Assembly: GCA_051657985.1 (NCBI GenBank)
Contig: JBOFLS010000083.1
Location: 1,358 to 65,357, forward strand
From: Sphingorhabdus sp.
Lineage (GTDB): Bacteria > Pseudomonadota > Alphaproteobacteria > Sphingomonadales > Sphingomonadaceae
Direction: 5' to 3'
DNA: 64,000 nucleotides
The translations under genes and the position numbers were made by a program. Shown piece by piece: positions 39,503 to 60,600 of the stretch (position 1 is its first letter; each line of letters opens with the position of its first letter). The notes under the pieces are model-generated. The model was not told the DNA's origin. It did not search any database and saw only the letters and a list, made by a program, of their open reading frames with translations.

Positions 39503-40687
39503 TCAACTTTGAATTCCCACAGCGCCATCGGCGATCATTTTCTCGATCAGGTAATCGGGATAGCCAAGATCATTCAGTATCGATAGGGAATCCTGCCCCG
39601 CCACAGGAAGCGAAACGGAAGCGTTCGGTCTTGTATCACCAAAGACAAGCGGCAGGCATGGCAGCATTGTTTTGCTACCATTTGATAGCGTAACGGGTTC
39701 CAAACCCTTCGATACAGCCAGATGCGGATCTTCAAACAGCTCTTCAGGCTTACCGATAGGGGCAAAGGGCAGTCCCGTTCCTTCAAGTTTGGCAATGATT
39801 TCGGCGCTGGTATAATCCGCAATCAGTTTGCGGATCGGCGGTAAGATGCGTTCGCGGGCCAGGACGCGATCGTTATTCTTACGAATGCTCTGATCGGCCC
39901 ACAGATCGTCCAGACCGAAAAGCACGCAGAATTTTTCCCACAGGGAATCGGTGACGACACCGATGAAGACCGGATCGTCCTTTGTTTCAAAAACATCGTA
40001 GATTGCCCAAGCTGAGATGCGCGCCGGCATTGGTGCAGCCGCTTTGCCGGTAACGGCGTATTGCGCCATATGCTGACCGACAAGATACACGGTGGTTTCG
40101 AACAGGGAGGCAATGACTTTCTGCCCCTTGCCGGTCCGGTGGCGTTCCTCAAGCGCGGCAAGAATGCCGATTACGCCGAACATACCGCCGGTAACGTCGA
40201 TAACGCTCGCACCCGCGCGCAGGGGTTTGCCTGGTGGCCCGGTCATGTACGCAAGTCCACCCATCATCTGCGCGACTTCGTCCAGCGCCGTGCGCTCTTC
40301 ATAGGGGCCAGGCAAAAAGCCTTTTTCCGAACAATAGATCAGGCGAGGATTGGCTGCGCTGAGTGTCTCGTAATCGAGGCCCAACCGATCGAGCGCGCCA
40401 GGGCGGAAATTTTCAACAAGGATATCGGCACGCGCGCATAATTTATGTGCAACATCGATCCCCCCTTCGGATTTCAGATCGAGGCAGATCGATTGTTTAT
40501 GCCGGTTATACATGGGGAAATAGCCTGCACCCGATCCAAGCAGGCGTCGGGTCTGATCGCCGCCGATCGGTTCGATACGGATCACCTCAGCCCCAAGGCT
40601 GGCCAATATATGCCCAACGGCCGGACCCATCACCATATGGGTGAATTCGACAACGCGTAGGCCTGAAAGGGGGGTGGGCAGGGTCAT
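39503..40687 (-). CDS. Class III (CaiB/BaiF) CoA-transferase
   Basis: LSGLRVVEF..MVMGP, ENFRPG, NPRLIYCS and catalytic Asp in ALDEVAQMMGG. Confidence 0.92.
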   Translation of the reverse strand: MTLPTPLSGLRVVEFTHMVMGPAVGHILASLGAEVIRIEPIGGDQTRRLLGSGAGYFPMYNRHKQSICLDLKSEGGIDVAHKLCARADILVENFRPGALDRLGLDYETLSAANPRLIYCSEKGFLPGPYEERTALDEVAQMMGGLAYMTGPPGKPLRAGASVIDVTGGMFGVIGILAALEERHRTGKGQKVIASLFETTVYLVGQHMAQYAVTGKAAAPMPARISAWAIYDVFETKDDPVFIGVVTDSLWEKFCVLFGLDDLWADQSIRKNNDRVLARERILPPIRKLIADYTSAEIIAKLEGTGLPFAPIGKPEELFEDPHLAVSKGLEPVTLSNGSKTMLPCLPLVFGDTRPNASVSLPVAGQDSLSILNDLGYPDYLIEKMIADGAVGIQS

Positions 40688-41586
40688 GAAGCAAACCCCA
40701 AAGGAAGCCCGGCATCGGGGGTGAAGCCATATAACGGTTCGCCCGGTAAGGCCGCGGCAAGGATTTCCCGAACTTTCAGCAATCTCGGCAGGTCGATACC
40801 CGTTTCGATTCCCATCGCCTGCAGCATGAAAACGAGATCCTCCGTCACGATGTTTCCCGATGCCCCGGGCGCAAAAGGACAGCCGCCGATCCCTCCGAGC
40901 GATGCATCGAGTGTCGTGATGCCTTCTTCCAGCCCGGCGAGCGCATTGGCGAGGCCAAGGCCCCGTGTATTATGCAGATGAAGCGTGGTCATCTTATTCG
41001 CACCGACCGCTGCTTTCACCTTGCGGACTAGCCGTTTGACCTGCGCCGGATTGGCATAGCCGGTGGTGTCCGAAAGGCTGAATTCCTGTGCGCCCGCTTC
41101 CGCCGCCGCATCGGCAAGACGCACGACCTGGTCCTCGTTGATCGGTCCTTCCATGGTGCATCCGAAAGCCGTCGACAGCCCAACGGCAAAATGAATTCCT
41201 GCGTCCTTCGCGATCTGTGCCGCCGCGCGGATTTCCTGGAGCATCGCCGAATGGTCCTTGCGCACATTCTTGATGCTGTGCGTTTCCGACATGGAAAAGG
41301 GCATTGACATGCCGTCTACGCCAGCGTCCACCGCGCGCAGCGCGCCCTTTGCATTTGGAATCAAGGTGACCACGGTCAGACCGGGTAATGTCTTGGCAAA
41401 GGCCACAATGTCTGCGGTATCCGCCATTTGCGGAAGCAACGAAGGTGGCACGAAGCTTCCGACCTCAATCTCTCGCACCCCTGCTTCAGCTTCGGCCCTG
41501 ACCCACGCCTTTTTCGCCTCCAGCGGCATGATCCGCTGCGTCGATTGCAGACCATCGCGCGGGCCGACTTCGGAAATCAGAATCAT
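40684..41586 (-). CDS. HMG-CoA lyase family (DRE-TIM) acyl-CoA lyase
   Basis: EVGPRDGLQ, LSDTTG, HLHNTRG and GGCPFAPGASGN motifs. The start ATG 41586 overlaps the upstream stop. Confidence 0.9.
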   Translation of the reverse strand: MILISEVGPRDGLQSTQRIMPLEAKKAWVRAEAEAGVREIEVGSFVPPSLLPQMADTADIVAFAKTLPGLTVVTLIPNAKGALRAVDAGVDGMSMPFSMSETHSIKNVRKDHSAMLQEIRAAAQIAKDAGIHFAVGLSTAFGCTMEGPINEDQVVRLADAAAEAGAQEFSLSDTTGYANPAQVKRLVRKVKAAVGANKMTTLHLHNTRGLGLANALAGLEEGITTLDASLGGIGGCPFAPGASGNIVTEDLVFMLQAMGIETGIDLPRLLKVREILAAALPGEPLYGFTPDAGLPLGFAS

Positions 41587-42164
41587 AGATACACCCATGG
41601 GCGCTTTGCCGTGTCTTGCGCTTGCCAAGCGGAGATGGCGTCACGGTGTTTAAGGGTCAAGTCGACAGCATCAAGGCCCTCGAGCAGCATTAATTTCGTT
41701 TCAGCCTCTATGTCGAAATGAGGATCGTCCACCTTTTGCTTGTTCAGATCAACCGTGACGATGGCGCCTATGATCGAACGGATTGCCTTTTTGCCAAGCA
41801 CAACCGGCAACAGGCCGTTGCGAATGCAATTGTTGTAGAAGATAGGCGCGAAGCTTTCGGCGATCACGCAGTCGATACCATATTCCCTGAGCGCCCAGAC
41901 GGCATGCTCGCGACTTGATCCGCAACCAAAATTCGCGCCGGACAGCAATATGCGGGCTTCGACAAAGTCACGCCGATTCAGAATGAATTCGGGATTGCGC
42001 ACGCGTGTATCGACGTCGGTATAGCGCCAGGGCGCGAACAGACCGTCGGCGAGGCCGGTCTTGCCAGTCGACTTCATCTCGCGCGAGGGGATGATTGTGT
42101 CGGTATCGATATTGTCGAGGATCAGCGGTGCGGCGACGCTGGTGAGAGTGGCGAACGGTTTCAT
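41583..42164 (-). CDS. LeuD-like hydratase/isomerase small subunit
   Basis: NIDTDTIIP, NFGCGSSREHAVWAL and FAPIFYNNC..NG motifs. Confidence 0.92.
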   Translation of the reverse strand: MKPFATLTSVAAPLILDNIDTDTIIPSREMKSTGKTGLADGLFAPWRYTDVDTRVRNPEFILNRRDFVEARILLSGANFGCGSSREHAVWALREYGIDCVIAESFAPIFYNNCIRNGLLPVVLGKKAIRSIIGAIVTVDLNKQKVDDPHFDIEAETKLMLLEGLDAVDLTLKHRDAISAWQAQDTAKRPWVYL

Positions 42165-43525
42165 GGTGCGGTAATTCTGCCTGCAATGGCGCTGGCCGCA
42201 ACAACCTCGGGGCTGGCAATGTGCGTGCGAATGCCCGGACCCTGTCGTCCTTCGAAATTGCGGTTGGTGGAGGAGATTACCCGGCTTCCGGGCGGGAAAC
42301 TTTCACCGCCTGCATAGAAGCACAGCGAGCAGCCGCTTTCCCGCCATTGAAAGCCGGCATCGATGAAAATACGATCCAGCCCTTCGGATTCTGCCGCGCG
42401 CTTGACCGCAGTGGAGCCGGGGACAACCAACGCCAAAATGCCTTCCGCGATCTTCCTGCCCTTCACGATTTCAGCCGCACGGCGAAGATCGGAAACGCGG
42501 CTGTTGGTGCAACTGCCGATAAAAGCGACGTCGATCGGCAACCCGGCAAGGGGCTGACCGGCTTGCAAACCCATATATTCAACAGCGCGAAGGACTGTCC
42601 CTTTGGGGACAGTCCCCAAAGGGACAGTCCCTAAGATTGGGATGCTTTGTTCGGGCGAGGTGCCCCAACTGACCATAGGCGTAAGCTTACCGGCATCGAT
42701 GACAATTTCCCGATCGAAAACGGCGTCTTCATCGGTAGCAAGATCGTCCCAGTCGGGCAGGGGGTCGGGTGCGTAACGTCGACCTTTGAGATAAGCGAGG
42801 GTCTTGGCATCGGGCGCGATGATCCCGCTAAAGGCGCTGAATTCGGTCGCCATATTGCACAGCGTCATCCGTGCTTCCATGTCTAGCGCCCGGACGGCTC
42901 CGCCTGCGAACTCAAGAATATGTCCCTTGCCGCCACCTGCACCTTCTTGTGCAATCAGCGTCAGGATCATATCCTTGGCGGTGACGCCCCCGGGCAGAAT
43001 ACCATCGAACATGACACGCATCGTTCTTGGCTTTGTCACCCGCAACGTCCCGGTCGCCATCGCATGTTCGGCCTCAGACGACCCAATCCCCCAGGCAAGC
43101 GCGCCAAACGCACCTTGCGTACACGTATGACTGTCGGGCGCAATCAGGGTAAGCCCTGGTAACACGATGCCCAGTTCGGGCGAAATGACATGGGTTATGC
43201 CCTGATCGGGATCGTTCACATCGAACAAAGTGATCCCCGCCTGATGGCAGGCGGCGCGGGTTTCGGTAATAAAGGCTTCGCCGCCCTGCATCGGGGTATC
43301 ATCCCCGCGACCGGGCCTGGTATCGACGATATGATCCATGACGGCAAAGACCCGCGCCGGATCGACGACCTTGCGACCGGCTTCCGCCATCGATTTCAGC
43401 GCCGCCGCCCCGGTGCGTTCGTGTAGGAAGATGCGGTCGATCGCGATCAACGCATTTTCCTGCCCCAGGTCGGCAACGACATGGGTATCCCAGATTTTAT
43501 CGAAAAGGGTGCGCGGAAAATTCAG
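42161..43525 (-). CDS. LeuC-like [4Fe-4S] hydratase/isomerase large subunit, probably CTG-initiated
   Basis: DSHTCT.GAFG, FIGSCTN, GCSLC and STNRNFEGRQG motifs. The frame extends upstream of the ORF-track start through conserved PRTLFDKIWDTHVV. The only plausible start is CTG 43525, 6 nt after GGAGG. Confidence 0.88.
   Translation of the reverse strand: MNFPRTLFDKIWDTHVVADLGQENALIAIDRIFLHERTGAAALKSMAEAGRKVVDPARVFAVMDHIVDTRPGRGDDTPMQGGEAFITETRAACHQAGITLFDVNDPDQGITHVISPELGIVLPGLTLIAPDSHTCTQGAFGALAWGIGSSEAEHAMATGTLRVTKPRTMRVMFDGILPGGVTAKDMILTLIAQEGAGGGKGHILEFAGGAVRALDMEARMTLCNMATEFSAFSGIIAPDAKTLAYLKGRRYAPDPLPDWDDLATDEDAVFDREIVIDAGKLTPMVSWGTSPEQSIPILGTVPLGTVPKGTVLRAVEYMGLQAGQPLAGLPIDVAFIGSCTNSRVSDLRRAAEIVKGRKIAEGILALVVPGSTAVKRAAESEGLDRIFIDAGFQWRESGCSLCFYAGGESFPPGSRVISSTNRNFEGRQGPGIRTHIASPEVVAASAIAGRITAP
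42592..42630. repeat. Perfect 39-nt palindrome inside the LeuC-like gene
   Basis: ggactgtccctttggggac-a-gtccccaaagggacagtcc has 19-bp perfect arms. It encodes the GTVP-L-GTVP-K-GTV triplication. Confidence 0.9.
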
Positions 43526-43526
43526 A

Positions 43527-44015
43527 TCAGGCCTCCAGACTGCGCCAGTCTCTACTCACAAGCGTTTCCTGGATTGCGGTGCGCGTTTCGAGCTTGCCGT
43601 TCCTGATCCAGTGCCAGGTGCGGCAGCGGCTTTGCCCATCATCGGCAAGCTGGATCATCTCGTACAGATAAAGCGACGGATCGCCCTGCCGCTGCCAGTA
43701 GAGCATCACGGTGCGGTTATATTCGTCCAGCCCAACTTCTGCGGCCCAGCCGACGATCAACTCGTTATCCCACCATATCCGCTTGTCTCTATATTCGGCT
43801 GGAAAATCGCGGATGTCGGTGCGGCCGTCATCCCATGTGTAGTGATTGGTCTGGTGATAGGGGTGGGGTCCGCTATCAGGAAAGCGGCAGAACAAGCGCG
43901 ATTTATGCTGATCGATCTGTTCGTCCTTATCGTTGAAATAGGTATAGACGCCGTCCCAGACACCTTCATGGCGGGCAAGCAGCGGCATATCTTCGCGGAT
44001 CGACATGATGTTCAT
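43527..44015 (-). CDS. Hypothetical aromatic-rich beta-barrel-like protein (DUF3598/lipocalin-like, tentative)
   Basis: Translationally coupled in the operon; HEG.W.G.Y N-terminus, many Trp/Tyr and alternating strand pattern. The family name is from recall only. Confidence 0.6.
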   Translation of the reverse strand: MNIMSIREDMPLLARHEGVWDGVYTYFNDKDEQIDQHKSRLFCRFPDSGPHPYHQTNHYTWDDGRTDIRDFPAEYRDKRIWWDNELIVGWAAEVGLDEYNRTVMLYWQRQGDPSLYLYEMIQLADDGQSRCRTWHWIRNGKLETRTAIQETLVSRDWRSLEA

Positions 44016-45391
44016 TCTCCTCGGGTGCTAAGGGCAATATGAAAGGCTTTGGCTGCCGTCGCCTTGAGCAGCGCGCGGTGCTCGCGGGCGAGCCTTTCGG
44101 CAGTAATCATCGCAGGATCGAAATCGATCGCATGCTCTGCATCGGCTTCGTACCAGGGGGCAAAGAAATGACGCGCGCGAACGATATTCCATGCCTTGTT
44201 CAAATAGGTCCCATGCCGATTTGGCGAAAGGTCTGGAAAAAGTAAGGAAGGGTCGCCTTGGTGGTGATGTTGTTCAATCACTATGGCGGTTGAACCCCTT
44301 TCCTTGGCAACAACGTCAAAAACGGCTTGCCATGCGTGCCAATCTGTTGGTGCTTTACCGTTCCAATCATCAGACAGGCCATGACCTGGCGGATCCATGA
44401 CAAAAGCCGATTGTTCGAACATATCTAACGAGCGTCCTGGCGCGGGGATATGCATCGTCTCGCCGCCGCTTGAGCCGCGCCAATGGATAAGGCCGTCGAA
44501 GAGATCGGTCTGTACATGGAGAAATTGCGAATCTTGATCCTCGGCAAAGACTGCAACTTCCGGTCCGGCATGGGCCTTTAAAAAAGCGCGGCTCCGCTCT
44601 TCCAATTCCTGGGGCGTCGCCACTTTACACGCTTCCCAGTTTGCAGGCATTTGACCTAGCCGGTCGATATGCGCTTGCAGCGGATCGCCATCATAAGCGC
44701 TGATCATCACCGGCGGCGTCCTGGCACCAGCTAGAGGAATGTCGCGTGACGCGCGCAAGACCGCGCCATAGCCAAGCCGATAGGCATCGCCACTGTCGAG
44801 CATTTCCATAACGATCGCGTGCACCTTTGCCGGATCGGCATGAGGATGCGATAACCGTGCAGCCGGTCTTATATCGAACCACGGGAAAAACCAGCTTTGT
44901 TCCAGGATACGGTTCCACAGCCAAGTCAGATGTTCGCCATAAAGCGATGGCTGGAAAGGCGGCAGATAGGCTTCACCGAAGATCGCCATTTCCTCCGGCG
45001 TCCAGATCGCATAGCCTCCGACGGCAAGGCCGGTGAACAGTTCCGGATGGCGCTTCAAGGCGGTTACCAGAATGATCCCGCCCGAATGGAAGCCGTAAGC
45101 CAAGGTTCGTTCGATTCTGATCGCACGGACGAATTCGACAACCGCATCGGCATAGTCGTTTATGTCGGGATCGGCTCCATTGGCTTTTGAGGGCAGCGGA
45201 TGCGATTGGCCAAAGCCCGGCGTGTCGGGCGCAATGCAAGTGAAATGTTCGCCCCATTCCAGCATAAGCATGGCATATTCGGCTGATGATCGTGGACTTT
45301 GGTGTACCATGATCAACGGCGGTCCCTTGCCGCAGCGGCGGTAATGGACTTGTCGGCCATCAATTGTCAGATAGTGACGCGTAATCTGCAT
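44012..45391 (-). CDS. Alpha/beta-hydrolase-fold protein, two-domain, non-canonical elbow
   Basis: VHYRRCG.G.PL..VHQSP and APDTPGFGQS motifs, elbow YGFHSGG, and a degenerate second domain with MDPPGHGLSD. Start placed at ATG 45391. Confidence 0.8.
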   Translation of the reverse strand: MQITRHYLTIDGRQVHYRRCGKGPPLIMVHQSPRSSAEYAMLMLEWGEHFTCIAPDTPGFGQSHPLPSKANGADPDINDYADAVVEFVRAIRIERTLAYGFHSGGIILVTALKRHPELFTGLAVGGYAIWTPEEMAIFGEAYLPPFQPSLYGEHLTWLWNRILEQSWFFPWFDIRPAARLSHPHADPAKVHAIVMEMLDSGDAYRLGYGAVLRASRDIPLAGARTPPVMISAYDGDPLQAHIDRLGQMPANWEACKVATPQELEERSRAFLKAHAGPEVAVFAEDQDSQFLHVQTDLFDGLIHWRGSSGGETMHIPAPGRSLDMFEQSAFVMDPPGHGLSDDWNGKAPTDWHAWQAVFDVVAKERGSTAIVIEQHHHQGDPSLLFPDLSPNRHGTYLNKAWNIVRARHFFAPWYEADAEHAIDFDPAMITAERLAREHRALLKATAAKAFHIALSTRGE

Positions 45392-45397
45392 GCTGCG

Positions 45398-45417
45398 AAA
45401 GTTGTCCGGACAAATTT
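45398..45417. promoter_or_regulatory. Palindromic operator, copy 1
   Basis: aaagTTGTCCGGACAAattt in the 84-bp divergent promoter region between the hydrolase and isochorismatase operons. Confidence 0.8.
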
Positions 45418-45475
45418 TGCTCGACAAGCCTGTACGTCCAAGTCAAAAGCGATGCAAGCTATGGAAGGAAAATTA

Positions 45476-46156
45476 ATGAACGTCGTCGGTACCAAAATGG
45501 TCAGCGATGGAAAGACCGCCAGGCAGATATTCGAGGAAGTGATAGCCAATCCGGCGCGCAAAAAGTTCGGGTTCGGAGAAAAACTGGCGATCATCAATGT
45601 CGATTTCCAGCAGGCCTATACGCGGACGGACATGTTCGTGACCGCCTATGAAACCGATCCGCGGCAGATCGAATATGCCAATAGCATCTCCCGATTGGCG
45701 CGGGCAAAAGGCATGCCGGTAGTCTGGACTCGTGTTGCTTATATGGACAATGCGGATGACGCCGGTGTTTGGGGAACGCGCACCAATATGCCCGATAGCC
45801 TGCAGAATATCAAATACGGGTCCGACCGCCATGCTTATGATCCGCGATGCGAGATCGATGCGAACGATCTGCAATATACCAAACGCATGCCGAGCGCGTT
45901 TTTCGAAACGCAGTTGGCGAGCTATCTGGTTTGGCACAAGGTCGATACCGTCGTGGTGACCGGTGGCAGCACGTCGGGCTGCGTTCGTGCAACCGCAGTG
46001 GATGCTCTCTCGCATGGCTATCGCACGATTGTGCCGATCGAAACCTGCGCAGACAAGCATGAGAGCTACCATTTCGCCAATCTGACCGACCTGCAGTTAA
46101 AATATGCCGATGTCGAACCGGTGCAAGCAGTGATCGACTGGCTGGAGGCGCGCTGA
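45476..46156 (+). CDS. Isochorismatase-family cysteine amidohydrolase (NicF / N-carbamoylsarcosine amidase-like)
   Basis: Asp-Lys-Cys triad in INVDFQ, YTKRMPSAF and GSTSGCVRAT. Start ATG 45476 with GGAAGGA RBS. Confidence 0.88.
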   Translation: MNVVGTKMVSDGKTARQIFEEVIANPARKKFGFGEKLAIINVDFQQAYTRTDMFVTAYETDPRQIEYANSISRLARAKGMPVVWTRVAYMDNADDAGVWGTRTNMPDSLQNIKYGSDRHAYDPRCEIDANDLQYTKRMPSAFFETQLASYLVWHKVDTVVVTGGSTSGCVRATAVDALSHGYRTIVPIETCADKHESYHFANLTDLQLKYADVEPVQAVIDWLEAR

Positions 46157-47031
46157 TGCAGGAGCGCAGCGCCGACCCCGGACTATATGATTATTCTTCC
46201 TATCGTGGTCGCAAGAAAATCACTTGGCCAGGCGGAAAGGCTGTTGCTGTCTGGATTGCGCCAAATCTGGAATATTATGAAATCAATCCCCCCGCGCATC
46301 CCAAGCGAAAGGCCTGGGGGCGTCCGCATCCCGATGTCGTAGGTTGGTCGCATCGCGATCATTCGAACCGGGTTTCGCATTGGCGGATGGCCGATGTTAT
46401 GACCAGGCATGGCTTTCCGGGATCGGTTTCGCTTTCGGTCGCGCTTTGCCAACATCATCCAGAAGTGGTTGCCGATGCCGATGCCCGTGGCTGGGAATTC
46501 TTCAGTCATGGTATCTATAATACGCGTTATGCTTATGATATGTCGGAGGAACAGGAGCGGTCGATTATTGAAGATTCGATCGCAACGGTGCGTGAATGCA
46601 CCGGCCAGACAATCCGTGGCTGGCTTGCCCCCGCGCTGACGCACACCCCGCGCACGCTCGATCTGATCGCTGAATATGGTCTCGATTATACCTGCGATCT
46701 GTATCATGACGATCAAGTGCAGTCGGTAAAGACCAAGTCGGGCGAGCTGGTTTCGATCCCCTACAGTCTGGAAGTCAACGACCACTACGGCTTCTTCGTC
46801 TACAACATGTCGGGCCGCGAATATGCCGACACGCTGATCCGGCAATTCGAACGACTGGCAACCGAGGGTGAGGCTTCGGGCACGGTCATGTGCATCCCGC
46901 TGCATGCCTATCTTATCGGGCAGCCGCACCGCATCGGCCCGTTCGAGCAGGCCCTGAAGCATATCGCCGCCGATGGTCGTGCCTGGATTGCGACGGCAGG
47001 GCAAATCGTCGATGCGTGGAAGGCACAGTAA
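46156..47031 (+). CDS. Polysaccharide-deacetylase-fold hydrolase 1 (PuuE-like)
   Basis: ITWPGGKAVAVW..PNLEY, RD.SNRV, SHG and RGWLAP motifs; IPYSLEVND; HAYLIGQPHRI. Confidence 0.82.
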   Translation: MQERSADPGLYDYSSYRGRKKITWPGGKAVAVWIAPNLEYYEINPPAHPKRKAWGRPHPDVVGWSHRDHSNRVSHWRMADVMTRHGFPGSVSLSVALCQHHPEVVADADARGWEFFSHGIYNTRYAYDMSEEQERSIIEDSIATVRECTGQTIRGWLAPALTHTPRTLDLIAEYGLDYTCDLYHDDQVQSVKTKSGELVSIPYSLEVNDHYGFFVYNMSGREYADTLIRQFERLATEGEASGTVMCIPLHAYLIGQPHRIGPFEQALKHIAADGRAWIATAGQIVDAWKAQ

Positions 47032-47936
47032 TGACGCTCGATCCCACCTATCTTCAATATTCCAACCGCCGCCATGGGTACGATCACGACCTGTTCGAAT
47101 GGACGGCAATCCACGATCGCAAACCCGTCGTCTGGCCCGGCGGGAAGTCGGTCGCAATATGGCTGTGCGTCAGTCTAGAATGGTTCCCTATCACTCCTAA
47201 CGATACACCCTTTCGCGCGCCGGGGCATATGCAGACCGCCTATCCCGATTATCGTCATTACACCGCACGCGATTATGGCAACCGGGTGGGTGTCTATCGG
47301 CTGCTCGATGCCTTCGCAAAAGTCGGAACCAAGGCAAGTTTCGCCACCAACAGCGCGATTGCGGAACGCTACCCTGCACTGATTGCCGACATTGTGCATG
47401 ACGGTCATGAAATTATCGCGCATTCGACCGATATGAACGGGACGATTGCGACCGGCATAGCTGTCGAGGAGGAGCGCAGGCTGATCGGCAGTTCGCTTGA
47501 CACATTTGAAAGTATAACGGGCAAGCGCCCCCAGGGCTGGTTGTCGATCGCCCGATCGCAAAGCTGGAATACGCCTGATCTGCTTAAAAAGGCCGGAGTG
47601 CGCTATTGCTGCGACTGGGTGAATGATGAACTGCCCTGGCGTTTCAAAAATGGCTTGATCAACCTGCCCTTGAACCACGAACTGAGCGATCGACAGATCA
47701 TCACCGTGCAGCAGCAATCGGCGGACAGCTATGCGCAATCGATGCGCGATGCGTTCGACTGGCTGGCCGGCGAAGCGACCGGTAGAATATTGCCGATGCA
47801 CCTGACGCCTTACATCATGGCCTTACCTTACCGTATCGATGCGCTTGAGGATTTGCTGGTGGATCTAGCCGGTCGTCAACAGGCTTGGGTCGCAACCGGG
47901 GCCGATATCGTCGATGCGTGGGAGGCGCAAATATGA
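47031..47936 (+). CDS. Polysaccharide-deacetylase-fold hydrolase 2 (PuuE-like paralogue)
   Basis: VVWPGGKSVAIW...SLEW, RDYGNRVG and GWLS motifs; LPLNHELSD; HLTPYIM..PYRI. The start ATG 47031 overlaps the upstream TAA. Confidence 0.82.
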   Translation: MTLDPTYLQYSNRRHGYDHDLFEWTAIHDRKPVVWPGGKSVAIWLCVSLEWFPITPNDTPFRAPGHMQTAYPDYRHYTARDYGNRVGVYRLLDAFAKVGTKASFATNSAIAERYPALIADIVHDGHEIIAHSTDMNGTIATGIAVEEERRLIGSSLDTFESITGKRPQGWLSIARSQSWNTPDLLKKAGVRYCCDWVNDELPWRFKNGLINLPLNHELSDRQIITVQQQSADSYAQSMRDAFDWLAGEATGRILPMHLTPYIMALPYRIDALEDLLVDLAGRQQAWVATGADIVDAWEAQI

Positions 47937-49354
47937 AGGTTCGAAACCCCCGTACCGGCGAATATGATTATGAAATCAAGCCTGCGGGTGCAGAGGATGT
48001 CGCGGCGACTGCACAGCGCCTGCGCGCTGCGCAACCCGCTTGGCAAAGCCTTGGTCCCCAAGGACGGGCCGATGTGCTTGAACGCTTTGCACAGGCGATC
48101 GAGCGTCATGCGCAGACGATCGTTGATTCGCTTACTATCGATACCGGCCGCCGGTCGGTGTCCTGGATCGAAGTCGAAGGGTTGCCGCGTACGATCCGCC
48201 GCTGGGCCGCGCGCGGGCAGGAGCTTATGAATGCGTTCGATGCGACCGAACGGCCATCGGCAACGCCGGGCATCATGCTTAAAGAGGAATACATTCCCTA
48301 TTCGCTGTTTGGAGCGATTGCGCCTTGGAACTTTCCGGTCATCCTTAGCCATATCGATGCCATTCCGGCATTGATGGCGGGCTGTGCGGCACTGGTAAAG
48401 CCAAGCGAGGTTACGCCGCGCTTCATTGCGCCGATGCGCGCCGCGCTTGCCGAGGTGCCCGAACTCGAGGCCGTCTTCGCCTATGTTGAGGGCGGTGCGG
48501 AAACCGGACAGGCGTTGATCGAAGCTGTCGATTATGTCTGCTTCACGGGTTCGACCGATACCGGGCGCAAGGTGGCCGAGGCTGCAGCTCGTGCATTGAT
48601 CCCCGCCAATCTGGAACTGGGCGGCAAAGATCCGATGATTATCCTTTCCAGTGCCGATCCTATCCAGGCCGCGCAAGTGGCTTTGCGGGCAAGCGTCGTT
48701 GCCACAGGCCAAGCCTGCCAGTCGATCGAGCGCATCTATGTGGCGCGCGAAATTGCTGCGCTATTTATGGACGCGCTGGTGCATGCCGCATCCGAAGTGC
48801 GTCTGACCTACCCCGATATCGGATCGGGCGATCTTGGGCCCTTTATCTTTGCAGCCCAAGCCGACAAGATTGCCGAGCAGTTGAACGACGCCGTCGCCAA
48901 GGGCGCACGCATTCTGACGGGCGGTAGTGTCGAAACACTTGGCGGCGGCAGATATCTACGCCCTACCGTCATCGTCGATGTAAAGCCCGACATGGCGTTG
49001 ATTGCCGAGGAGACATTCGGCCCGATCCTTCCGGTGACGATATTCGACAATGTCGACGAGGCTGTAATGCTGGCCAATGACAGTCGCTATGGCCTGTCTG
49101 CTGCGGTGCTGGCGGGAACGCTTGAAGAGGCGGAGGCGGTGGGCGTGCGCCTGGAAGCGGGTGCGGTATCGCTGAATGACGGCGCGCTGACCTCGATGGT
49201 ATGGGATGCAACCAACAGTTCGATGAAGGCATCGGGGTTAGGGCCTTCGCGGATGGGCGATGAGGGGATGCTGCGTTTCTTTCGGCGGCAGGCACTGATC
49301 AAGCAAACCGGACAGCCCCTGCCGCTCGCGGCCTATGCGGAAAGAGTGACATGA
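47933..49354 (+). CDS. Aldehyde dehydrogenase
   Basis: PWNFP, KPSE.TP, FTGST.TG, LELGGKDP, catalytic GQAC and EETFGP motifs. Start placed at ATG 47933. Confidence 0.93.
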   Translation: MKVRNPRTGEYDYEIKPAGAEDVAATAQRLRAAQPAWQSLGPQGRADVLERFAQAIERHAQTIVDSLTIDTGRRSVSWIEVEGLPRTIRRWAARGQELMNAFDATERPSATPGIMLKEEYIPYSLFGAIAPWNFPVILSHIDAIPALMAGCAALVKPSEVTPRFIAPMRAALAEVPELEAVFAYVEGGAETGQALIEAVDYVCFTGSTDTGRKVAEAAARALIPANLELGGKDPMIILSSADPIQAAQVALRASVVATGQACQSIERIYVAREIAALFMDALVHAASEVRLTYPDIGSGDLGPFIFAAQADKIAEQLNDAVAKGARILTGGSVETLGGGRYLRPTVIVDVKPDMALIAEETFGPILPVTIFDNVDEAVMLANDSRYGLSAAVLAGTLEEAEAVGVRLEAGAVSLNDGALTSMVWDATNSSMKASGLGPSRMGDEGMLRFFRRQALIKQTGQPLPLAAYAERVT

Positions 49355-49932
49355 AACCCTTCATAGCCTTCGTAGCTTTTGCGCTGGCAGCCTGTGCGAT
49401 CCCTGCCGAGCGCCCGCAGGTCGCCGTTTCTTCCCCTGGGGTTGAAAAGCCCGTCGAAAAACTGCCGACCGACATTCGCCGTGTTACGATGATCGTACGT
49501 AATATGGAGAACAGCCTTAAACTCTACCGCGATGTCATGGGACTGAAGGTCAATTATGATACCGTGCTGCCGATGTCGGGCGTTGCGCTTCCGGCTGGGG
49601 AGCCGGGCGCGAAGGCTCGGTTGGTATTATTGAACGGAAACGATCCCTTTATCGGCTGGATCGGCCTGATGGAATGGCTCGATCCGCGGCTGCCCGACCC
49701 CGGTCCCTACCCAAAACATATGGGAATAGGCGGGCATATCATTGTGACTCAGACCGACGATATCGACCGCCGCTGCGCCGAGGCGGCAAGGCTGCCCGGT
49801 ATTACCGTCACGGCTCTGCCACGCGATCAAAGCTATCCCGGGCGCAACGGCGCGCCGCCGATCAAGGTGCGCGGGTGCAACTTCTTCGATCCCGACGGTA
49901 CGCTGATCGAACTCAATCAATTGATCGGATGA
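49351..49932 (+). CDS. VOC / glyoxalase-superfamily protein with lipoprotein signal
   Basis: N-terminal lipobox LAAC; V..ME.SL..YRDV.GL and FFDPDGTLIELNQ VOC motifs. Confidence 0.8.
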   Translation: MKPFIAFVAFALAACAIPAERPQVAVSSPGVEKPVEKLPTDIRRVTMIVRNMENSLKLYRDVMGLKVNYDTVLPMSGVALPAGEPGAKARLVLLNGNDPFIGWIGLMEWLDPRLPDPGPYPKHMGIGGHIIVTQTDDIDRRCAEAARLPGITVTALPRDQSYPGRNGAPPIKVRGCNFFDPDGTLIELNQLIG

Positions 49933-49936: not shown

Positions 49937-50959
49937 ATGAAGGCTTACGGCATAGGACCGCAATCGGGTATCGAAGGGCTGCATCTCTTTGCAGCCGCCG
50001 AACCGGTGATCGAACCGGGCAAGATCGTCGTTCGCGTTACCGCTGCAGGGCTCAATTATCGCGATCTCATGCTATTGCGCGGGCAATATGGCGCGGCGCA
50101 ACCGGAAAAGCGGATACCCTTGTCCGATGGCGTCGGCATTGTCGAGGCAATCGGGGACGATGTAACAGGATTTCAAATTGGCGACCGCGTGATTGCCCCG
50201 CATTTTTTGGGTTGGGCTGATGGGCCGTTTTCGATGGCTGCCTTCGGCCAGGATATGGGCGTTACCGCCGATGGCTGGTTGGCTGAAAAAATCGCTTTTC
50301 CGGCGACCGCCGCGATCAAGCTTCCTGGCGCGATATCCGATGCCACCGCCGCTACATTGGCAGTCGCCGGTGCCACGGTATGGCATGCAATGGTCGCTTT
50401 CGGACAGGTGAAGCCAGGCGAATTGGTTCTGGCGCAGGGGACGGGGGGCGTGGCTATTTTCGCTCTGCTGCTCGCCAAGGCGCTTGGTGCTCGGTTTGCA
50501 ATCACGTCTTCGAGCGATGCGAAGCTTGAAAGATGCAAGGCCATGGGTGCGGACTTTGTCGGGAATTACCAAACGCAACCCGATTGGCCCTCGGCTCTAT
50601 TGGCGCAAACCGGGGGGCAGGGGGCTGATGTCATCATCGATACGCTCGGCTTTCCGGCATTCACCCAAACGATCCAGGCAGCGGCGGTTAATGGCCGGAT
50701 CGGCACTCTGGGGGCGCTTTCGGGTAGTCCACAGGATGCAGCCACGGGCAGCCAGGGTTTGATCATAGCAAAAAACTTGACAATTAAGGGCATTGCTTCG
50801 GGCAGTCGTGCGATGCTTCAGGCCGTTCTCGAGATTGTGGCGCGGCATGGCATCGAAATGCCCATCGATCGCGCATTCGATTTCTCCGATACGCCAGCCG
50901 CCTTTACCCATCTCAACAGCGGGACGCATTTGGGGAAAGTGTTAATTAGGATTAACTAG
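49937..50959 (+). CDS. MDR-family NAD(P)H oxidoreductase (zinc-independent, quinone-reductase-like)
   Basis: GLNYRD, IP.SDGVG.V, QGTGGVA.F and HLGKV motifs. Confidence 0.88.
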   Translation: MKAYGIGPQSGIEGLHLFAAAEPVIEPGKIVVRVTAAGLNYRDLMLLRGQYGAAQPEKRIPLSDGVGIVEAIGDDVTGFQIGDRVIAPHFLGWADGPFSMAAFGQDMGVTADGWLAEKIAFPATAAIKLPGAISDATAATLAVAGATVWHAMVAFGQVKPGELVLAQGTGGVAIFALLLAKALGARFAITSSSDAKLERCKAMGADFVGNYQTQPDWPSALLAQTGGQGADVIIDTLGFPAFTQTIQAAAVNGRIGTLGALSGSPQDAATGSQGLIIAKNLTIKGIASGSRAMLQAVLEIVARHGIEMPIDRAFDFSDTPAAFTHLNSGTHLGKVLIRIN

Positions 50960-51675
50960 CGCTTTAGCTCGACCAGTTCATACCAGGTCATCATATAACC
51001 GCCCACTCCGCCTTTTAGGAAAATGGCGTCTTCATCATTGGTAATCCACAGGTCATAGGGTGGATGCGCGCCTGCCATGCCTGCGCTACCATCGTCAACG
51101 AACTGGAAATGCCGCGCATTGAAAGTACCTGCTTGAACGGTTACTTCCTCCTGGCCTAGAAAGATGCCGTCGATCTTCACTTGCGCGATCATCGGTGGGG
51201 TCGCGCCGCGATGGTCGGGGCTGGGAAGGTAGCAATTGAACTTGTGCCGCTCGCCCTCATGGCTCCAGCGATGCATGCCCAGCATATAGCCATCGGCTAC
51301 GATCGGGTGCGTACCGAAACCGTCCAGAGGAAGTTCCGCCTCCACGCGCTGCGAAAGCCGGCCGATCGATGGACCGAAGCTTTCGCATTCGATCGTCTGG
51401 CCATCGAAGCGCAGCCAACCCGATCCCATAAAAGCATCGCCGACGGTCAAACGCACATGCAGATCTATGGGTTGGCCATGCTCGTCCAGGCTATAGATGA
51501 CGTCTCGCATAACGGTAGGTGCCGGTTCTTCGATCTCGCAATGCGCACGCAGAGTGACCTTGCCGTCGCTATGGCGGGTGAACAGGAAAGTTTCAAAACC
51601 GCGTGGTTCATCGAGGCGTTCGGGCTTTTTCGAGGTGTAGGCGATCCGGCCTTCGATGCTGCGATGCTGCATCAC
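50956..51675 (-). CDS. Hypothetical beta-rich protein
   Basis: 239 aa, coupled to the upstream gene by ATGA overlap. No family recognised. Confidence 0.7.
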   Translation of the reverse strand: MMQHRSIEGRIAYTSKKPERLDEPRGFETFLFTRHSDGKVTLRAHCEIEEPAPTVMRDVIYSLDEHGQPIDLHVRLTVGDAFMGSGWLRFDGQTIECESFGPSIGRLSQRVEAELPLDGFGTHPIVADGYMLGMHRWSHEGERHKFNCYLPSPDHRGATPPMIAQVKIDGIFLGQEEVTVQAGTFNARHFQFVDDGSAGMAGAHPPYDLWITNDEDAIFLKGGVGGYMMTWYELVELKR

Positions 51676-52034
51676 ATTTCCCGCAATGTTTTTGAAAGCT
51701 CCTCGACACTAGGCTCGGCCAATTCCTCCAGCGCTTCCATATCCTGCTGCACGCCGCGCATGATGCGGGCGATATATTCGCGGGTTTGCATCCCACGTTC
51801 GTTCCCCGCTGCGCGATCGGGCGTATAGGCTTCGATATCGGCACGGCTGATCGTACCTTTGGCTTCAAGCAATCGTTCGATGGTATCGAGCCGTTCGCGC
51901 AGCACCGAAACCTCACCGGCCAGGGCCATTACGATAGAAAGCGTACGATCGATCGCCGGATCGTCGAAATAGTGTGGCCGCTTGCCTTTGGCTTTGGCCC
52001 CGGCGCGAGCGATCCAGTCTATGTCATCGTTCAT
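51672..52034 (-). CDS. Small hypothetical helical/coiled-coil protein
   Basis: 120 aa, coupled on both sides; heptad segment LAGEVSVLRERLDTIERLL. Confidence 0.7.
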   Translation of the reverse strand: MNDDIDWIARAGAKAKGKRPHYFDDPAIDRTLSIVMALAGEVSVLRERLDTIERLLEAKGTISRADIEAYTPDRAAGNERGMQTREYIARIMRGVQQDMEALEELAEPSVEELSKTLREM

Positions 52035-53233
52035 GCAGCCGGTTTCCAGGCGCCATAGGCGTTCCAGCTAGCGGCGCGACCATGGTCTTCGCCTTCGCCC
52101 TGGCGCTGTTTGGGGAACACGGTTTCGTCGACCACCGCGGTTACTCCGGTTACGAACTGGCAATCGTGCGGCAGACCCTTTTCGGCCATTATGCCCTTGA
52201 GGTCGAGCGCATGCATAGACGACCAGAAGGGTTCGTTGTTGTTGAACGCATCCCAATCGCGGATGAACTGCTCGTAAAGTGGCATCGCGTCGGAATATTG
52301 CGGCTGTTCCAGATGCAGCATCAGCCCACCGGGCGCAAGTATGCGCGCGCTTTCCCCGATGATACGGGGAAGCGCGGAACCGGATAGCTCGTGCAGATAC
52401 ATCGTCGTTTGCACCCAATCGAAGCTTTCATCCTCGAACGCGTTCATATCCTCGGCATTCATCTGGATAAATTTCAGGTTGTGCGCGCCAAGCGCCTGCG
52501 CGCGCGCATGACCGTAGCGAAGAGACGGGGCAGCGGTATCGATCGCGATCACTTCCGTATCCGGAAAGGCGAGCGCCAGCGGCACGACGTTATGGCCGAT
52601 CGTACAGCCAAGGTCGAGAATGCGCCGTGGCACCCAGCCGGGGCGCTCCTTTTTGATCCATTCGACCAGCGCTTGTCCCCCACCATCCGACAAAGCGCCA
52701 AGGCCGCCGCCGGTGGTTGCGAAGATGCCGCAGTCGTAATTCGCACCCGCAGAAACGTCGCCCGGACGTTCCTCGCCATGATAGCTGCCGGGCATGCAGT
52801 GAATGTCGATTGCTGCCTGATAGCGCGGCACCTGCACCGAGGGATCAAGCCGCAACGTATCGCGGCCCTCGTTATACTGCCGCGCCTTGGCATCGAGTTC
52901 GTCCAACTGGCGCAACACCATCGACCGACCGTTCTGCTGGCGCATTTCCATCGAGTTGCGCTTCAATGCCGACCAGAAGCGGTGCCAGGAATCCTTGTTC
53001 ATCGCATGACGGATCTCGAACCGGTCCTTGGGCTCGCGGCCCTGTTCTTTCATAAAAGTGGGCAGCACGCGTTTGTCATAGGCAAGCTTGTTTCCAGGGC
53101 CTAGCGCGGACGCCATATATTTGTTGAAGTTTGCCAGAAAATTGAACCGCGCCGCTTCGTCATGGCTGGGTGTGGGAAACACCGCATGGCGGGTGACGGC
53201 AGTGTAGGGTGGTGGGATTTCAGGCTTGCTCAT
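52031..53233 (-). CDS. Class I SAM-dependent methyltransferase-fold protein with N-terminal extension
   Basis: ILDLGCTIG motif I variant, IDTA, NAEDM..F.DESFD.V...MYLHE and LAPGG. Confidence 0.82.
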   Translation of the reverse strand: MSKPEIPPPYTAVTRHAVFPTPSHDEAARFNFLANFNKYMASALGPGNKLAYDKRVLPTFMKEQGREPKDRFEIRHAMNKDSWHRFWSALKRNSMEMRQQNGRSMVLRQLDELDAKARQYNEGRDTLRLDPSVQVPRYQAAIDIHCMPGSYHGEERPGDVSAGANYDCGIFATTGGGLGALSDGGGQALVEWIKKERPGWVPRRILDLGCTIGHNVVPLALAFPDTEVIAIDTAAPSLRYGHARAQALGAHNLKFIQMNAEDMNAFEDESFDWVQTTMYLHELSGSALPRIIGESARILAPGGLMLHLEQPQYSDAMPLYEQFIRDWDAFNNNEPFWSSMHALDLKGIMAEKGLPHDCQFVTGVTAVVDETVFPKQRQGEGEDHGRAASWNAYGAWKPAA

Positions 53234-54360
53234 ATCAGTCCATCCTTGGCCAAACGGGCAATGGTTTCTTCGCTGATACGCTTGAAATGGTCACGGCCAG
53301 GGGTTTTGACAACACCATTTTCAAGCAGGCTGTCGGCGTGTTGATGCGTATCCGCGGCATAGGTTGCGGCGAACAGGGCATTGCGCTGGCGGGACAATGT
53401 GTTCGTCATTCCAGGCTTGCGCCGAGCGGCGCGAAGAGCGGCCAGATCGAGATCGGCAAAAGCGGTAAACGTTTCGCCACTGTTCGACTGCGCAAGGATA
53501 TTGCCTTTCCAGTCGATCACCATCGAATTGCCGTCGGCAGACGCCTCGGGAAGCGGGGTGTCGGTAATGCCGGCGGTGTTGGCGGAGATGACATAAGCCA
53601 GATTTTCGAAGGCCCGAGCTCGCTTGGCGATCATTTTGGGGGTCGCCATCGGGGAACCGATTTCGGACGAGCTATGCACGAAAATTTCCGCACCGCGCAG
53701 TGCGTGCGCGCGGGCGATTTCCGGATAGAGAATTTCTTCTGACGCGATTGCCGCCAGATTGCCGATTTCGGTCCGCGCAACGGGAAACGCGCCGTCAAGA
53801 CCATAGATATCCAGATATTTCGACCAGACATCATGCGGTGTAGGCGCAAACATCGAGTTTAAACGGCGATAGCGCAGTACGACATTGCCGTTGGGTGCGA
53901 TAACGAAGCTTGCCTGAAAATAAAGGCCGGGGAAGTGGCGGTCGGCCTCGTAAGCGTTGCCGGCAAGGAACAGTTTTTGTTCCTGCGCGATTTGGCTCAG
54001 CGCTTCATATTCAGGGCCGTCGACTTCCAGCGCGGCCTTATCGGTGAATTCCGGTATCGAAATGGCTCCCGGATAGCTGGTAAGAATATATTCGGGCAAT
54101 ACGGCAAGGCGCACGCGTGTGCCGCTATATTGATTGATGAACTTGGTGGCCGCACGAATCTTGGGATCGAGTGCAGCAATGGTCTCCAGCATCTGCTTGC
54201 GCGCGGCAGCCTTATCGGGCGTTCGCTCGATCGAACGAGCGGCGAACTGCAACGCCACGGCAGCATAGTTTTTTGGATCAGCCATTCCTTGTGCCCCTAC
54301 CGGCAGGGGCAGTGCGCCTGCCATTATTACTGCCAAAGCATCCCGTCTTCTCATCTTCAT
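53230..54360 (-). CDS. Nitrilase/CN-hydrolase-fold protein with variant triad and possible Tat signal
   Basis: VLPEY (Glu), YRRL where YRK is expected, IASEEILYPE where ICYD/E..FPE is expected, and N-terminal RRRDAL...VGA. Confidence 0.8.
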   Translation of the reverse strand: MKMRRRDALAVIMAGALPLPVGAQGMADPKNYAAVALQFAARSIERTPDKAAARKQMLETIAALDPKIRAATKFINQYSGTRVRLAVLPEYILTSYPGAISIPEFTDKAALEVDGPEYEALSQIAQEQKLFLAGNAYEADRHFPGLYFQASFVIAPNGNVVLRYRRLNSMFAPTPHDVWSKYLDIYGLDGAFPVARTEIGNLAAIASEEILYPEIARAHALRGAEIFVHSSSEIGSPMATPKMIAKRARAFENLAYVISANTAGITDTPLPEASADGNSMVIDWKGNILAQSNSGETFTAFADLDLAALRAARRKPGMTNTLSRQRNALFAATYAADTHQHADSLLENGVVKTPGRDHFKRISEETIARLAKDGLI

Positions 54361-60543: not shown

Positions 60544-60560
60544 AACAAAAAAGGCTTGAC

Positions 60561-60582
60561 TAAAGTTGTCCGGACAACTTTA
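60561..60582. promoter_or_regulatory. Palindromic operator, copy 3 (perfect 22-mer) abutting a -35-like hexamer
   Basis: TAAAGTTGTCCGGACAACTTTA, starting at the last base of TTGACT (60556-60561), 18 nt upstream of the CitE-like start. Confidence 0.85.
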
Positions 60583-60600
60583 CAGAAAGTCGTGATCGCA

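Follow-up and report, generated by a model that had tools for sequence, protein, structure and literature searches.

What is degraded by a pair of divergent operons that place an amidase and two PuuE-like hydrolases on one side of a promoter, and a hydratase, a CoA-transferase and a lyase on the other? The question is raised by a 64,000-nt stretch of a Sphingorhabdus sp. contig (JBOFLS010000083.1), referred to here as the window, for which a sequence-only reading had proposed a route from an imide through maleamate and maleate to the cleavage of malyl-CoA. We regard it as about an even call that the core of the regulon degrades a five-membered cyclic imide, or a close cyclic amide, whose ring carbons would end up as a C4-dicarboxylate skeleton. 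A substituted maleimide or succinimide appears more likely as the substrate than plain maleimide, because variant lyases found with these genes, and an operon of the mesaconyl-CoA-hydratase type, favour substituted maleates and succinates.

Gene identities were taken from a listing of open reading frames (ORFs) and from Pfam and NCBIfam scans. These agree that the plus-strand operon begins with an isochorismatase-type amidase (ISO) followed by two PuuE-like hydrolases (PuuE1 and PuuE2), and that the minus-strand operon ends with LeuC- and LeuD-like subunits, a lyase resembling 3-hydroxy-3-methylglutaryl-CoA (HMG-CoA) lyase (HMGL) and a class III CoA-transferase (CoAT1), as the sequence-only reading had described. 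That inventory holds for the genes it named and had passed over the two genes that open the minus operon, for an alpha/beta-hydrolase-fold protein (ABH) and a protein matching no family (U162), as well as the genes after PuuE2 in the plus operon. The tight coupling and the shared operator that it reported were also found. Neighbouring genes in both operons are joined by ATGA-type 4-nt or by 1-nt overlaps; the start of CoAT1 overlaps the stop of HMGL by 4 nt, and the ATGA overlap between HMGL and the LeuD stop was confirmed by direct reading of the sequence. The palindrome TTGTCCGGACAA lies in the 84-bp spacer from which the two operons diverge.

The proposed route would begin with PuuE1, a putative metal-independent hydrolase of the CE4 fold, which would open the ring to a half-amide, probably in complex with the degenerate PuuE2. 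ISO would then free ammonia and leave a cis-2-ene-1,4-dicarboxylate, for which a maleate with an alkyl or carboxyalkyl substituent is likelier than maleate itself. The Fe-S hydratase LeuCD would hydrate the double bond, yielding an (R)-2-hydroxy acid like citramalate or a 2,3-dialkylmalate, CoAT1 would form the CoA thioester of this hydroxy acid, and HMGL would split the thioester into a 2-oxoacid (of the pyruvate or glyoxylate type) and an acyl-CoA. The argument draws on gene identities, paralogy, conservation of catalytic motifs, synteny, co-occurrence of modules and a shared operator, all of them direct observations, from which we infer the substrate and every catalytic assignment.

Relatives of the cluster show how constant its membership is. 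A tblastn matrix recorded the presence of each cluster gene in 85 related loci. PuuE1 and PuuE2 were recovered in all 85, with PuuE2 directly after PuuE1 each time; the corresponding numbers are 84 for ISO, 76 for ABH, 72 for LeuC, 71 for LeuD, 69 for HMGL, 68 for U162 and 65 for CoAT1. Since tblastn recovers the core genes in 65-85 of the 85 loci, the gene arrangement is far from chance. Among the other members, a methyltransferase was found in 61 loci, an aldehyde dehydrogenase (ALDH) in 60, the small proteins U120 and U239 in 56 and 51, a nitrilase-fold protein in 50, a VOC protein and an FAD oxidase in 44 each, a major facilitator superfamily (MFS) transporter in 37 and a zinc-dependent alcohol dehydrogenase (Zn-ADH) in 27. 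Gene-caller and Pfam views of four relatives revealed the same supercluster. PuuE1 is about 80-89% identical among Sphingomonadales genera and one Steroidobacter metagenome-assembled genome (MAG), and its relatives occur in at least 575 species-level genomes, mostly of aquatic and soil Sphingomonadales, with some from other proteobacterial classes. Two loci from MAGs labelled Synechococcus (L036) and Rhodospirillaceae (L041) carry a cluster of the Sphingomonadales type, with protein identities of 75-87%, which suggests that these contigs were mis-binned.

The operator binds these genes to a larger set. Exactly three copies of the palindrome occur in the whole 3.48-Mb assembly, and all three lie inside the window. 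About 70 of the 85 related loci, from different species, carry the exact 12-mer in the corresponding ABH/ISO spacer, and in a genome of another class (locus L093) the same operator stands between the operon of the ISO-PuuE1-PuuE2 cassette and an operon for a CitE-like lyase. The core genes belong to a conserved regulon of about 22 genes, the operator of which can also be written as AAAGTTGTCCGGACAACTTT and has a GT-N4-AC core that fits GntR-family operators. A gene for a GntR/UTRA regulator adjoins the cluster in three loci (L008, L015 and L094); the orthologue in the window genome (G000) lies on contig C59, at 65-766, and is 57% identical to the L008 regulator. This protein is probably the repressor of the regulon. 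The C59 regulator gene stands at the very start of its contig, and the window contig ends within its last CoA-transferase gene; the two contigs may be neighbours.

Whether the amide-hydrolysing front end and the dicarboxylate-cleaving back end serve one substrate was addressed in a sample of 400 genomes of the phylum, in which the cassette was defined as PuuE1 at 50% identity or more with a tandem PuuE2, and cluster-type LeuC as a match at E <=1e-140. The cassette occurred in seven genomes, cluster-type LeuC in five and both in four, so that this LeuC is present in 4/7 genomes with the cassette and in 1/393 without it (Fisher p = 1.7e-7). One of the seven, G204, has a match (C1:1468205-1469230) that covers residues 5-346 only and is possibly a pseudogene.

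The back end also varies in its position and in its chemistry. Genomes of family f15 have the LeuC-LeuD-CoAT1-HMGL(-U162) module some 45 kb away from the cassette, which is joined there to the genes for the nitrilase-fold protein, U239, the membrane protein U226, the FAD oxidase and ALDH. In L094 (genome G079) the cassette shares one operon with a lyase of the phosphoenolpyruvate (PEP)-mutase/isocitrate lyase (ICL) family, a family that includes 2,3-dimethylmalate lyase, and this operon faces genes for the GntR/UTRA regulator, LeuC, LeuD and a TRAP dicarboxylate transporter. The cluster-associated LeuC of that locus is split into two overlapping ORFs (L094:13805-15243), by a frameshift or as a genuine split. 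In L093 (genome G135), the cassette faces genes for a CitE-like lyase, a MaoC protein, an acyl-CoA dehydrogenase (ACAD) and a second CoA-transferase (CitE-MaoC-ACAD-CoAT2) that are 43-65% identical to those of the third operon of the window; G135 carries no cluster-type LeuC. No CitE-MaoC-ACAD set was found within 10 kb of the cassette in the 85 loci. Judged by family, each conserved partner of the cassette is a C4/C5-dicarboxylate cleavage route, as would be expected from a five-membered imide.

These same observations bear on the possibility that two co-regulated but separate pathways are present, in which LeuCD, the CoA-transferase and the lyase assimilate a free branched dicarboxylate (citraconate, D-citramalate or D-malate) taken from the surroundings, and the amidase/PuuE cassette serves to obtain nitrogen from some unrelated cyclic amide. 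Such a division would accommodate the 45 kb that can separate the modules, the cassettes without cluster-type LeuC in G135 and G079, and some Novosphingobium loci in which only an MFS transporter and Zn-ADH are within range of the cassette. It is harder to reconcile with the co-occurrence of the modules at the level of genomes (p = 1.7e-7), with a divergent promoter and operator common to both in about 70 loci, and with the fact that the alternative neighbours of the cassette are always C4/C5-dicarboxylate cleavage modules. We consider separate pathways rather improbable.

The front end of the proposed imide route rests on the cassette. Among solved structures ISO is nearest to 4L07/4L08 (E=3e-30), which we take to be Ami, a maleamate amidase from P. 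putida S16, followed by N-carbamoylsarcosine amidohydrolase (1e-27; another 2e-23) and by NicF, 3OT4/3UAO (4e-21). Its Asp-Lys-Cys triad aligns with the D, K and C of 4L07, as in isochorismatase-like cysteine amidohydrolases, and the motifs VDF, TKRMPSAF and GGSTSGCVRAT are kept in 83-84 orthologues; no NCBIfam equivalog was matched. The identity of 3OT4/3UAO as the maleamate amidohydrolase NicF is documented (PMC5806882).

The two PuuE-like proteins are remote relatives of PuuE, both with E values of 1e-17 to 1e-21. Against the TIGR03212 equivalog model, which has a cut-off of 424.6 bits, PuuE1 scores 113.7 and PuuE2 87.9, placing both outside PuuE itself, and PuuE1 matches the structures 1Z7A, 3CL6 and 3S6O within that range of E values. 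In PuuE1 the N37-x-E39 motif, H118 (with N122 replacing Trp) and the equivalent of His259 are invariant down to 51% identity. The Glu of N-x-E and the His are present in both window proteins, and the Trp of PuuE is replaced by Asn in PuuE1 and Met in PuuE2. Neither has the Asp-His-His metal triad of CE4 enzymes, so that metal independence is plausible for both. In distant orthologues of PuuE2 the Glu is replaced by Gln, and the His259-equivalent position holds Thr, Asn or Gln. PuuE1 is therefore likely to be the catalytic, ring-opening subunit, and PuuE2 probably a non-catalytic or partner subunit, given the loss of catalytic residues in its distant orthologues. Of the "PuuE pair", as it had been put, PuuE1 has invariant motifs and PuuE2 is the degenerating member, and two enzymes acting in series are probably not at work. 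There is precedent for the reaction, as imidase activity is proven for the PuuE-family enzymes BpIH and AfIH, which use an N-x-E/H-x3-W site (N36/E38/H127/W131; PMC11424739), and the CE4-fold cyclic-imide hydrolases CIH293, HxnM and P. putida AAY98498 are in the literature, where they precede an amidase in nicotinate catabolism (PMC8478523).

Might the ring be that of a ureide rather than an imide? PuuE1 and PuuE2 would then open an allantoin- or hydantoin-like ring, ISO would act as an N-carbamoyl amidase, and the other enzymes would take the carbon skeleton. At the family level the CE4 proteins do match the allantoinase PuuE best, and the N-carbamoylsarcosine amidohydrolases are among the best matches of ISO at the E values just given. 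Both PuuE-like proteins nevertheless fall far below the equivalog cut-off and lack its Trp, no other purine or ureide genes are present among the regulon ORFs, and the decarbamoylated amine would be no obvious substrate for LeuCD or for MaoC/CitE, the modules that are the conserved partners of the cassette. Since all partners of the cassette cleave C4/C5 dicarboxylates, a ureide or hydantoin pathway is disfavoured, and we think it unlikely.

A different assignment follows from giving weight to ABH. Lower pyridine-ring catabolism (of nicotinate, nicotine or picolinate) would make ABH a NicD-like N-formylmaleamate deformylase and ISO a NicF/Ami-like maleamate amidase, with LeuCD replacing maleate isomerase as a maleate hydratase and D-malate being activated and cleaved to glyoxylate and acetyl-CoA. 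Indeed, as in NicD-NicF(-NicE) and Ami of P. putida S16, a NicF-related amidase (by its match to 3UAO) is encoded beside an alpha/beta-fold protein, here on either side of the promoter, and a maleate-type product would be expected; LeuCD enzymes can hydrate maleate, and EC 2.8.3.20 also accepts (R)-malate (PMC8307300). Unlike those systems, the window offers no match to an M29-fold 2,5-dihydroxypyridine dioxygenase of the NicX type or to a maleate isomerase among ORFs from 33 to 64 kb, and the two CE4 proteins, which are its most conserved members, would be left without a role. The regulon ORFs include no other cytoplasmic ring-cleaving dioxygenase and no pyridine hydroxylase, the only VOC protein being a lipoprotein that is probably exported. 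ABH is atypical as well. Its nearest solved structures (the Cif epoxide hydrolase, AidH and haloalkane dehalogenases) match the N-terminal part only, and a C-terminal domain of about 170 aa matches no family. An HxxP-type oxyanion motif, VHQSPRSS, and GFHSGG are both conserved in about 70 orthologues. These motifs, rather than the PDB alignment, which stops short of the nucleophile elbow, would put a His in place of the nucleophilic Asp of epoxide hydrolases and dehalogenases, leaving ABH with neither a canonical Ser nor a canonical Asp nucleophile. A pyridine pathway is, on this evidence, distinctly unlikely.

The hydratase of the proposed imide route is a specialised paralogue, to judge from its relationships and loops. 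The window genome has a second leuC, 48% identical, with its own leuD on contig C16; a cluster LeuCD that is the sole genomic copy was a candidate that could thereby be rejected. On TIGR00170 (cut-off 560) the C16 protein scores 730 bits and the cluster LeuC 479, which sets the latter outside the housekeeping 3-isopropylmalate dehydratases. LeuC sequences drawn from the same genomes across classes (13 of the cluster type and 10 housekeeping) were placed in a maximum-likelihood tree, where the two types split with 100/100 support and long stems. The view that this LeuCD is distinct from the housekeeping isomerase, on which the sequence-only reading depended, is thus borne out. Cluster LeuC keeps the three Cys ligands of the Fe-S cluster, the catalytic Ser of SxNRNF and the Asp-His pairs, with the conserved motifs GSCTNS, GCSLC, STNRNF, DSHT and MDHIVD, as expected of an Fe-S hydro-lyase of the aconitase superfamily, and its loop HEVTSPQAF is changed to HERTGAAAL in all orthologues. 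The LeuD-like subunit (PRK01641, 219 bits) has a substrate loop, IIPSREM[KR]STG, that is invariant among orthologues, versus IIPAAWLKTIS in housekeeping LeuD. Both substitutions introduce an Arg into a substrate loop. LeuCD hydration of maleate is documented (PMC8307300). The start of the cluster LeuC is unusual: no ATG, GTG or TTG lies upstream of the conserved N-terminus (P)RTLFDKIWD (minus strand, 43450-43558), and the sole plausible start is a CTG at 43525, which follows GGAGG by 6 nt and the upstream stop codon by 1 nt, where orthologues have an ATG 2-4 codons before the conserved (P)RTLF.

For the last two steps, HMGL reaches 273 bits on the PRK05692 HMG-CoA lyase subfamily model (cut-off 246) and no more than 95 on any synthase model. 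It is nearest to the solved HMG-CoA lyases 1YDO and 6NDS, and conserves RDGLQ and HLHNTRG (the HxH metal site), as members of that family do; by analogy, its specificity may be for a citramalyl-CoA-type substrate. CoAT1 matches PF02515 over its full length and conserves ALDEVAQMMGG, which contains the Asp, in 64/65 orthologues. No named NCBIfam equivalog was reached (best 233 bits against cut-offs of 442-750), and the nearest solved structures are 4ED9, formyl-CoA transferase (Frc), YfdE and SUGCT. CoAT1 resembles dicarboxylate CoA-transferases, of which Frc, YfdE and SUGCT are examples. The precedents cited for this part of the route do exist, namely LeuCD hydration of maleate and the known pair of (R)-citramalate CoA-transferase (EC 2.8.3.20) and (R)-citramalyl-CoA lyase (EC 4.1.3.46) (PMC8307300). 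A biosynthetic cluster, in which an HMGL-family condensing enzyme and LeuCD extend a 2-oxoacid in leucine- or homocitrate-like fashion for a secondary metabolite, is hardly credible and was rejected on model scores and gene context: the family does include the isopropylmalate and homocitrate synthases that partner LeuCD-type isomerases, and the regulon has a methyltransferase, but HMGL scores as a lyase, no LeuB-type dehydrogenase is present, and a TonB receptor, an MFS importer, amidases, CoA-transferases and GntR/UTRA control are typical of catabolism.

Several points weigh against degradation of a cyclic imide as set out above. With only about 25-30% identity to PuuE, scores below its equivalog cut-off and no Trp to complete the Glu-His-Trp triad, PuuE1 and PuuE2 could catalyse a different reaction. 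The match of ISO to N-carbamoylsarcosine amidase is about as close as that to the maleamate amidases. Intact cluster-type LeuC is missing from three of the seven cassette genomes (none in G135 and G079, truncated in G204), so that the hydratase route is not obligatory. The scheme also gives no role to ABH, with its His at the nucleophile position, or to U162, though both are conserved. This last point touches the earlier contention that no outside gene is needed, which does not stand: ABH (76/85) and U162 (68/85) are conserved, and so are ALDH, the FAD oxidase, the nitrilase-fold protein, U239, the methyltransferase, the MFS transporter and the TonB receptor. The proposed order of ring opening, deamidation, hydration, CoA transfer and retro-Claisen cleavage agrees, in general outline, with all the evidence from homology and co-occurrence. 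Its unsubstituted version, from maleate to malyl-CoA, has fared worst, as the PEP-mutase/ICL-family lyase variant and the CitE/ACAD operon suggest alkyl-substituted C4-dicarboxylates. The TonB receptor, MFS transporter, FAD oxidase, exported nitrilase-fold protein, methyltransferase, ALDH, ABH and the two barrel proteins probably bring in a precursor and turn it into the imide, as an upstream part to which the VOC protein would also belong. The CitE/MaoC/ACAD/CoA-transferase operon is a probable route for saturated (succinate-type) or CoA-activated congeners.

Each part of the imide route has relatives in known systems. The sequence of an imidase and a half-amidase is exemplified by Blastobacter sp. 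A17p-4. The same CE4-fold, apparently metal-independent ring opener, followed by an amidase that yields ammonia and a dicarboxylate, is found in the cyclic-imide catabolism of P. putida (CIH293), in A. nidulans HxnM and HxnN (PMC8478523, PMC9304392) and with BpIH/AfIH (PMC11424739). Like PuuE and BpIH, PuuE1 keeps the N-x-E, His and His259-equivalent positions. Unlike the cyclic-imide systems, the window has an obligate PuuE1-PuuE2 tandem with one member degenerating and with Asn or Met for the Trp; where HxnN is a putative amidase of EC 3.5.1.4 (PMC8478523), ISO is a Cys hydrolase of the isochorismatase fold. What follows downstream, an Fe-S hydratase, CoA transfer and a lyase, also differs.

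In the nicotinate fermentation of Eubacterium barkeri, the LeuCD-type hydratase DmdAB and the lyase Dml cleave 2,3-dimethylmaleate to pyruvate and a carboxylic acid. L094 is like this system in pairing the cassette with LeuCD and a PEP-mutase/ICL-family lyase, and the window is unlike it in having a CoA-transferase and an HMG-CoA-lyase-family enzyme instead of a free-acid lyase; the window LeuCD is of the bacterial two-subunit LeuC/LeuD type. The class III CoA-transferase and HMG-CoA-lyase-family lyase of Chloroflexus aurantiacus, which act on an (R)-2-hydroxy-dicarboxylate (EC 2.8.3.20 and EC 4.1.3.46; PMC8307300), can be likened by predicted function to CoAT1 and HMGL, the genes of which are translationally coupled. 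Unlike the Chloroflexus pair, CoAT1 and HMGL share a catabolic regulon with a hydratase and an amide-hydrolysing front end. The third operon resembles the CoA-dependent branched C5-dicarboxylate route Ict-Ich-Ccl of P. aeruginosa (PA0878-0883; PMC9875883), differing in that it is under the same operator as the amidase/PuuE cassette. The PA0878-0883 cluster does not metabolise citraconate or (R)-citramalate (PMC9875883), and by analogy the LeuCD module could cover these two compounds. No paper was found that describes this gene combination. Its parts resemble known systems, and the combination, the pair of catalytic and degenerate CE4 proteins and the regulon are not described.

A more specific proposal names the natural substrate. 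The regulon might be a dedicated pathway for tetrapyrrole-derived 3-methyl-4-R-maleimides (for example methyl-ethyl-maleimide, methyl-vinyl-maleimide and hematinic acid) and their reduced succinimide counterparts, a suggestion that we hold to be unlikely as it stands. The sources named for such monopyrrolic oxidation products are chlorophylls, bacteriochlorophylls, haem and bilins. The TonB receptor and the monocarboxylate-type MFS transporter would admit these products, PuuE1/2 would open their ring and ISO would deamidate them; dialkylmaleates would pass through LeuCD, the CoA-transferase and the lyase to pyruvate and acyl-CoA, and saturated congeners through the ACAD/MaoC/CitE operon. The arguments for this are circumstantial: the ecology of the hosts, which are mostly aquatic Sphingomonadales with many phototroph-associated or bacteriochlorophyll-containing genera; the likeness of U162 to S-type bilin lyases and haem-binding nitrobindins; the Arg in the LeuCD loops; and the lyase variant of the dimethylmalate-lyase family. 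No paper was found on enzymatic or bacterial degradation of hematinic acid, alkylmaleimides or pigment-derived maleimides.

If the imide route is correct, it would constitute a widespread, undescribed bacterial means of mineralising cyclic imides, present in at least 575 species-level genomes and uniting CE4-fold imidases, NicF-type amidases, LeuCD hydration and CoA-dependent retro-Claisen cleavage, which are known only separately. It would provide a function for a LeuCD paralogue that annotation routinely mistakes for isopropylmalate dehydratase and for genes labelled "polysaccharide deacetylase" and "isochorismatase", and would illustrate a CE4 pair with one catalytic and one degenerate member. 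It would also supply a well-defined GntR/UTRA operator-regulator pair, the effector of which could reveal the natural substrate, and that substrate may point to a missing microbial sink for pigment-derived maleimides.

Table. Features of the two divergent operons, the operator copies and other members of the regulon, by position in the window
Feature	Positions	Strand	Description	Family match
CoAT1	39503-40687	minus	class III (CaiB/BaiF/Frc-type) CoA-transferase, 394 aa	CoA_transf_3 PF02515, E=6e-106
HMGL	40684-41586	minus	HMG-CoA-lyase-family lyase, ~300 aa, ATG start at 41586	PF00682, E=9e-51
LeuD-like	41583-42164	minus	small subunit of putative paralogous Fe-S hydratase, 193 aa	Aconitase_C PF00694
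LeuC-like	42161-43525	minus	large subunit of putative paralogous hydratase, 454 aa	Aconitase PF00330, E=1e-140
U162	43527-44015	minus	conserved 162-aa unknown; predicted 10-strand calycin/FABP-like beta-barrel	
ABH	44012-45391	minus	atypical two-domain alpha/beta-hydrolase-fold protein, 459 aa; first gene of the minus operon	PF00561, residues 36-134
Divergent promoter spacer	45392-45475		84 bp, between minus and plus operons	
Operator copy 1	45402-45413		palindrome TTGTCCGGACAA, inside the 84-bp spacer	
ISO	45476-46156	plus	isochorismatase-family cysteine amidohydrolase, 226 aa	PF00857
PuuE1	46156-47031	plus	PuuE-like CE4-fold hydrolase 1, 291 aa	Polysacc_deac_1 PF01522
PuuE2	47028-47936	plus	PuuE-like CE4-fold protein 2, ~302 aa	Polysacc_deac_1 PF01522
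ALDH	47933-49354	plus	succinate-semialdehyde-dehydrogenase-like, 473 aa; same operon as PuuE2	PF00171
VOC protein	49351-49932	plus	VOC/glyoxalase-fold protein with lipoprotein signal	PF00903
Zn-ADH	49937-50959	plus	Zn-ADH/quinone-oxidoreductase-like protein	PF00107/PF08240
U120 and U239	50956-52034		120-aa helical protein and 239-aa protein	
Nitrilase-fold protein	53230-54360	minus	Cys-less, Tat-like signal	
Seven-gene operon at copy 2		minus	TonB receptor, MFS, FAD_binding_4 oxidase, nitrilase-fold protein, methyltransferase, U120, U239	
Operator copy 2	59801		between the U226 gene and the seven-gene operon	
U226	59863-60543		six-transmembrane protein, after operator copy 2	
Third operon	60556-64000		CitE-like lyase, MaoC/mesaconyl-CoA-hydratase-like, ACAD, class III CoA-transferase	
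Operator copy 3	60566		precedes the CitE-like/MaoC/ACAD/CoA-transferase operon	

The remaining members of the regulon surround this core. The plus operon extends past PuuE2 through ALDH, which is joined to it by an ATGA overlap, the VOC lipoprotein and Zn-ADH to 50959; an unrelated pstSCAB-phoU-phoB operon lies downstream of CoAT1. A scan for promoters and terminators over 39-52.5 kb gave counts close to the shuffle expectation and was uninformative. ALDH reaches 372 bits on NF006916 (cut-off 521) and also adjoins the cassette in family f15. The N-terminus of the VOC/glyoxalase-fold protein, MKPFIAFVAFALAAC, was read directly as a lipoprotein-type signal, and this protein is probably exported, unlike its cytoplasmic neighbours.

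Four of the proteins (U162, U239, U120 and U226) have no match in NCBIfam. U162 has no Pfam family either, a search at E values up to 10 giving only a sub-threshold DUF3598_N. Its AlphaFold 2 (AF2) model (pLDDT 92) retrieved DUF3598/BFA1, the S-type bilin lyases CpcS/CpeS and nitrobindins in Foldseek at TM-scores of 0.6-0.67, and that of U239 (pLDDT 92) a DUF1849/DUF1089-like beta-barrel; the relatives of both are generic ligand-binding barrels, too general to assign a function from. Linkage of U239 and U226 to the cassette persists in distant families as well. In the nitrilase-fold protein the Glu-Lys-Cys of the superfamily is replaced by Glu/YRR/ASEE, with Lys changed to Arg and Cys to Ser, and this holds in 54/54 orthologues, distant ones included.

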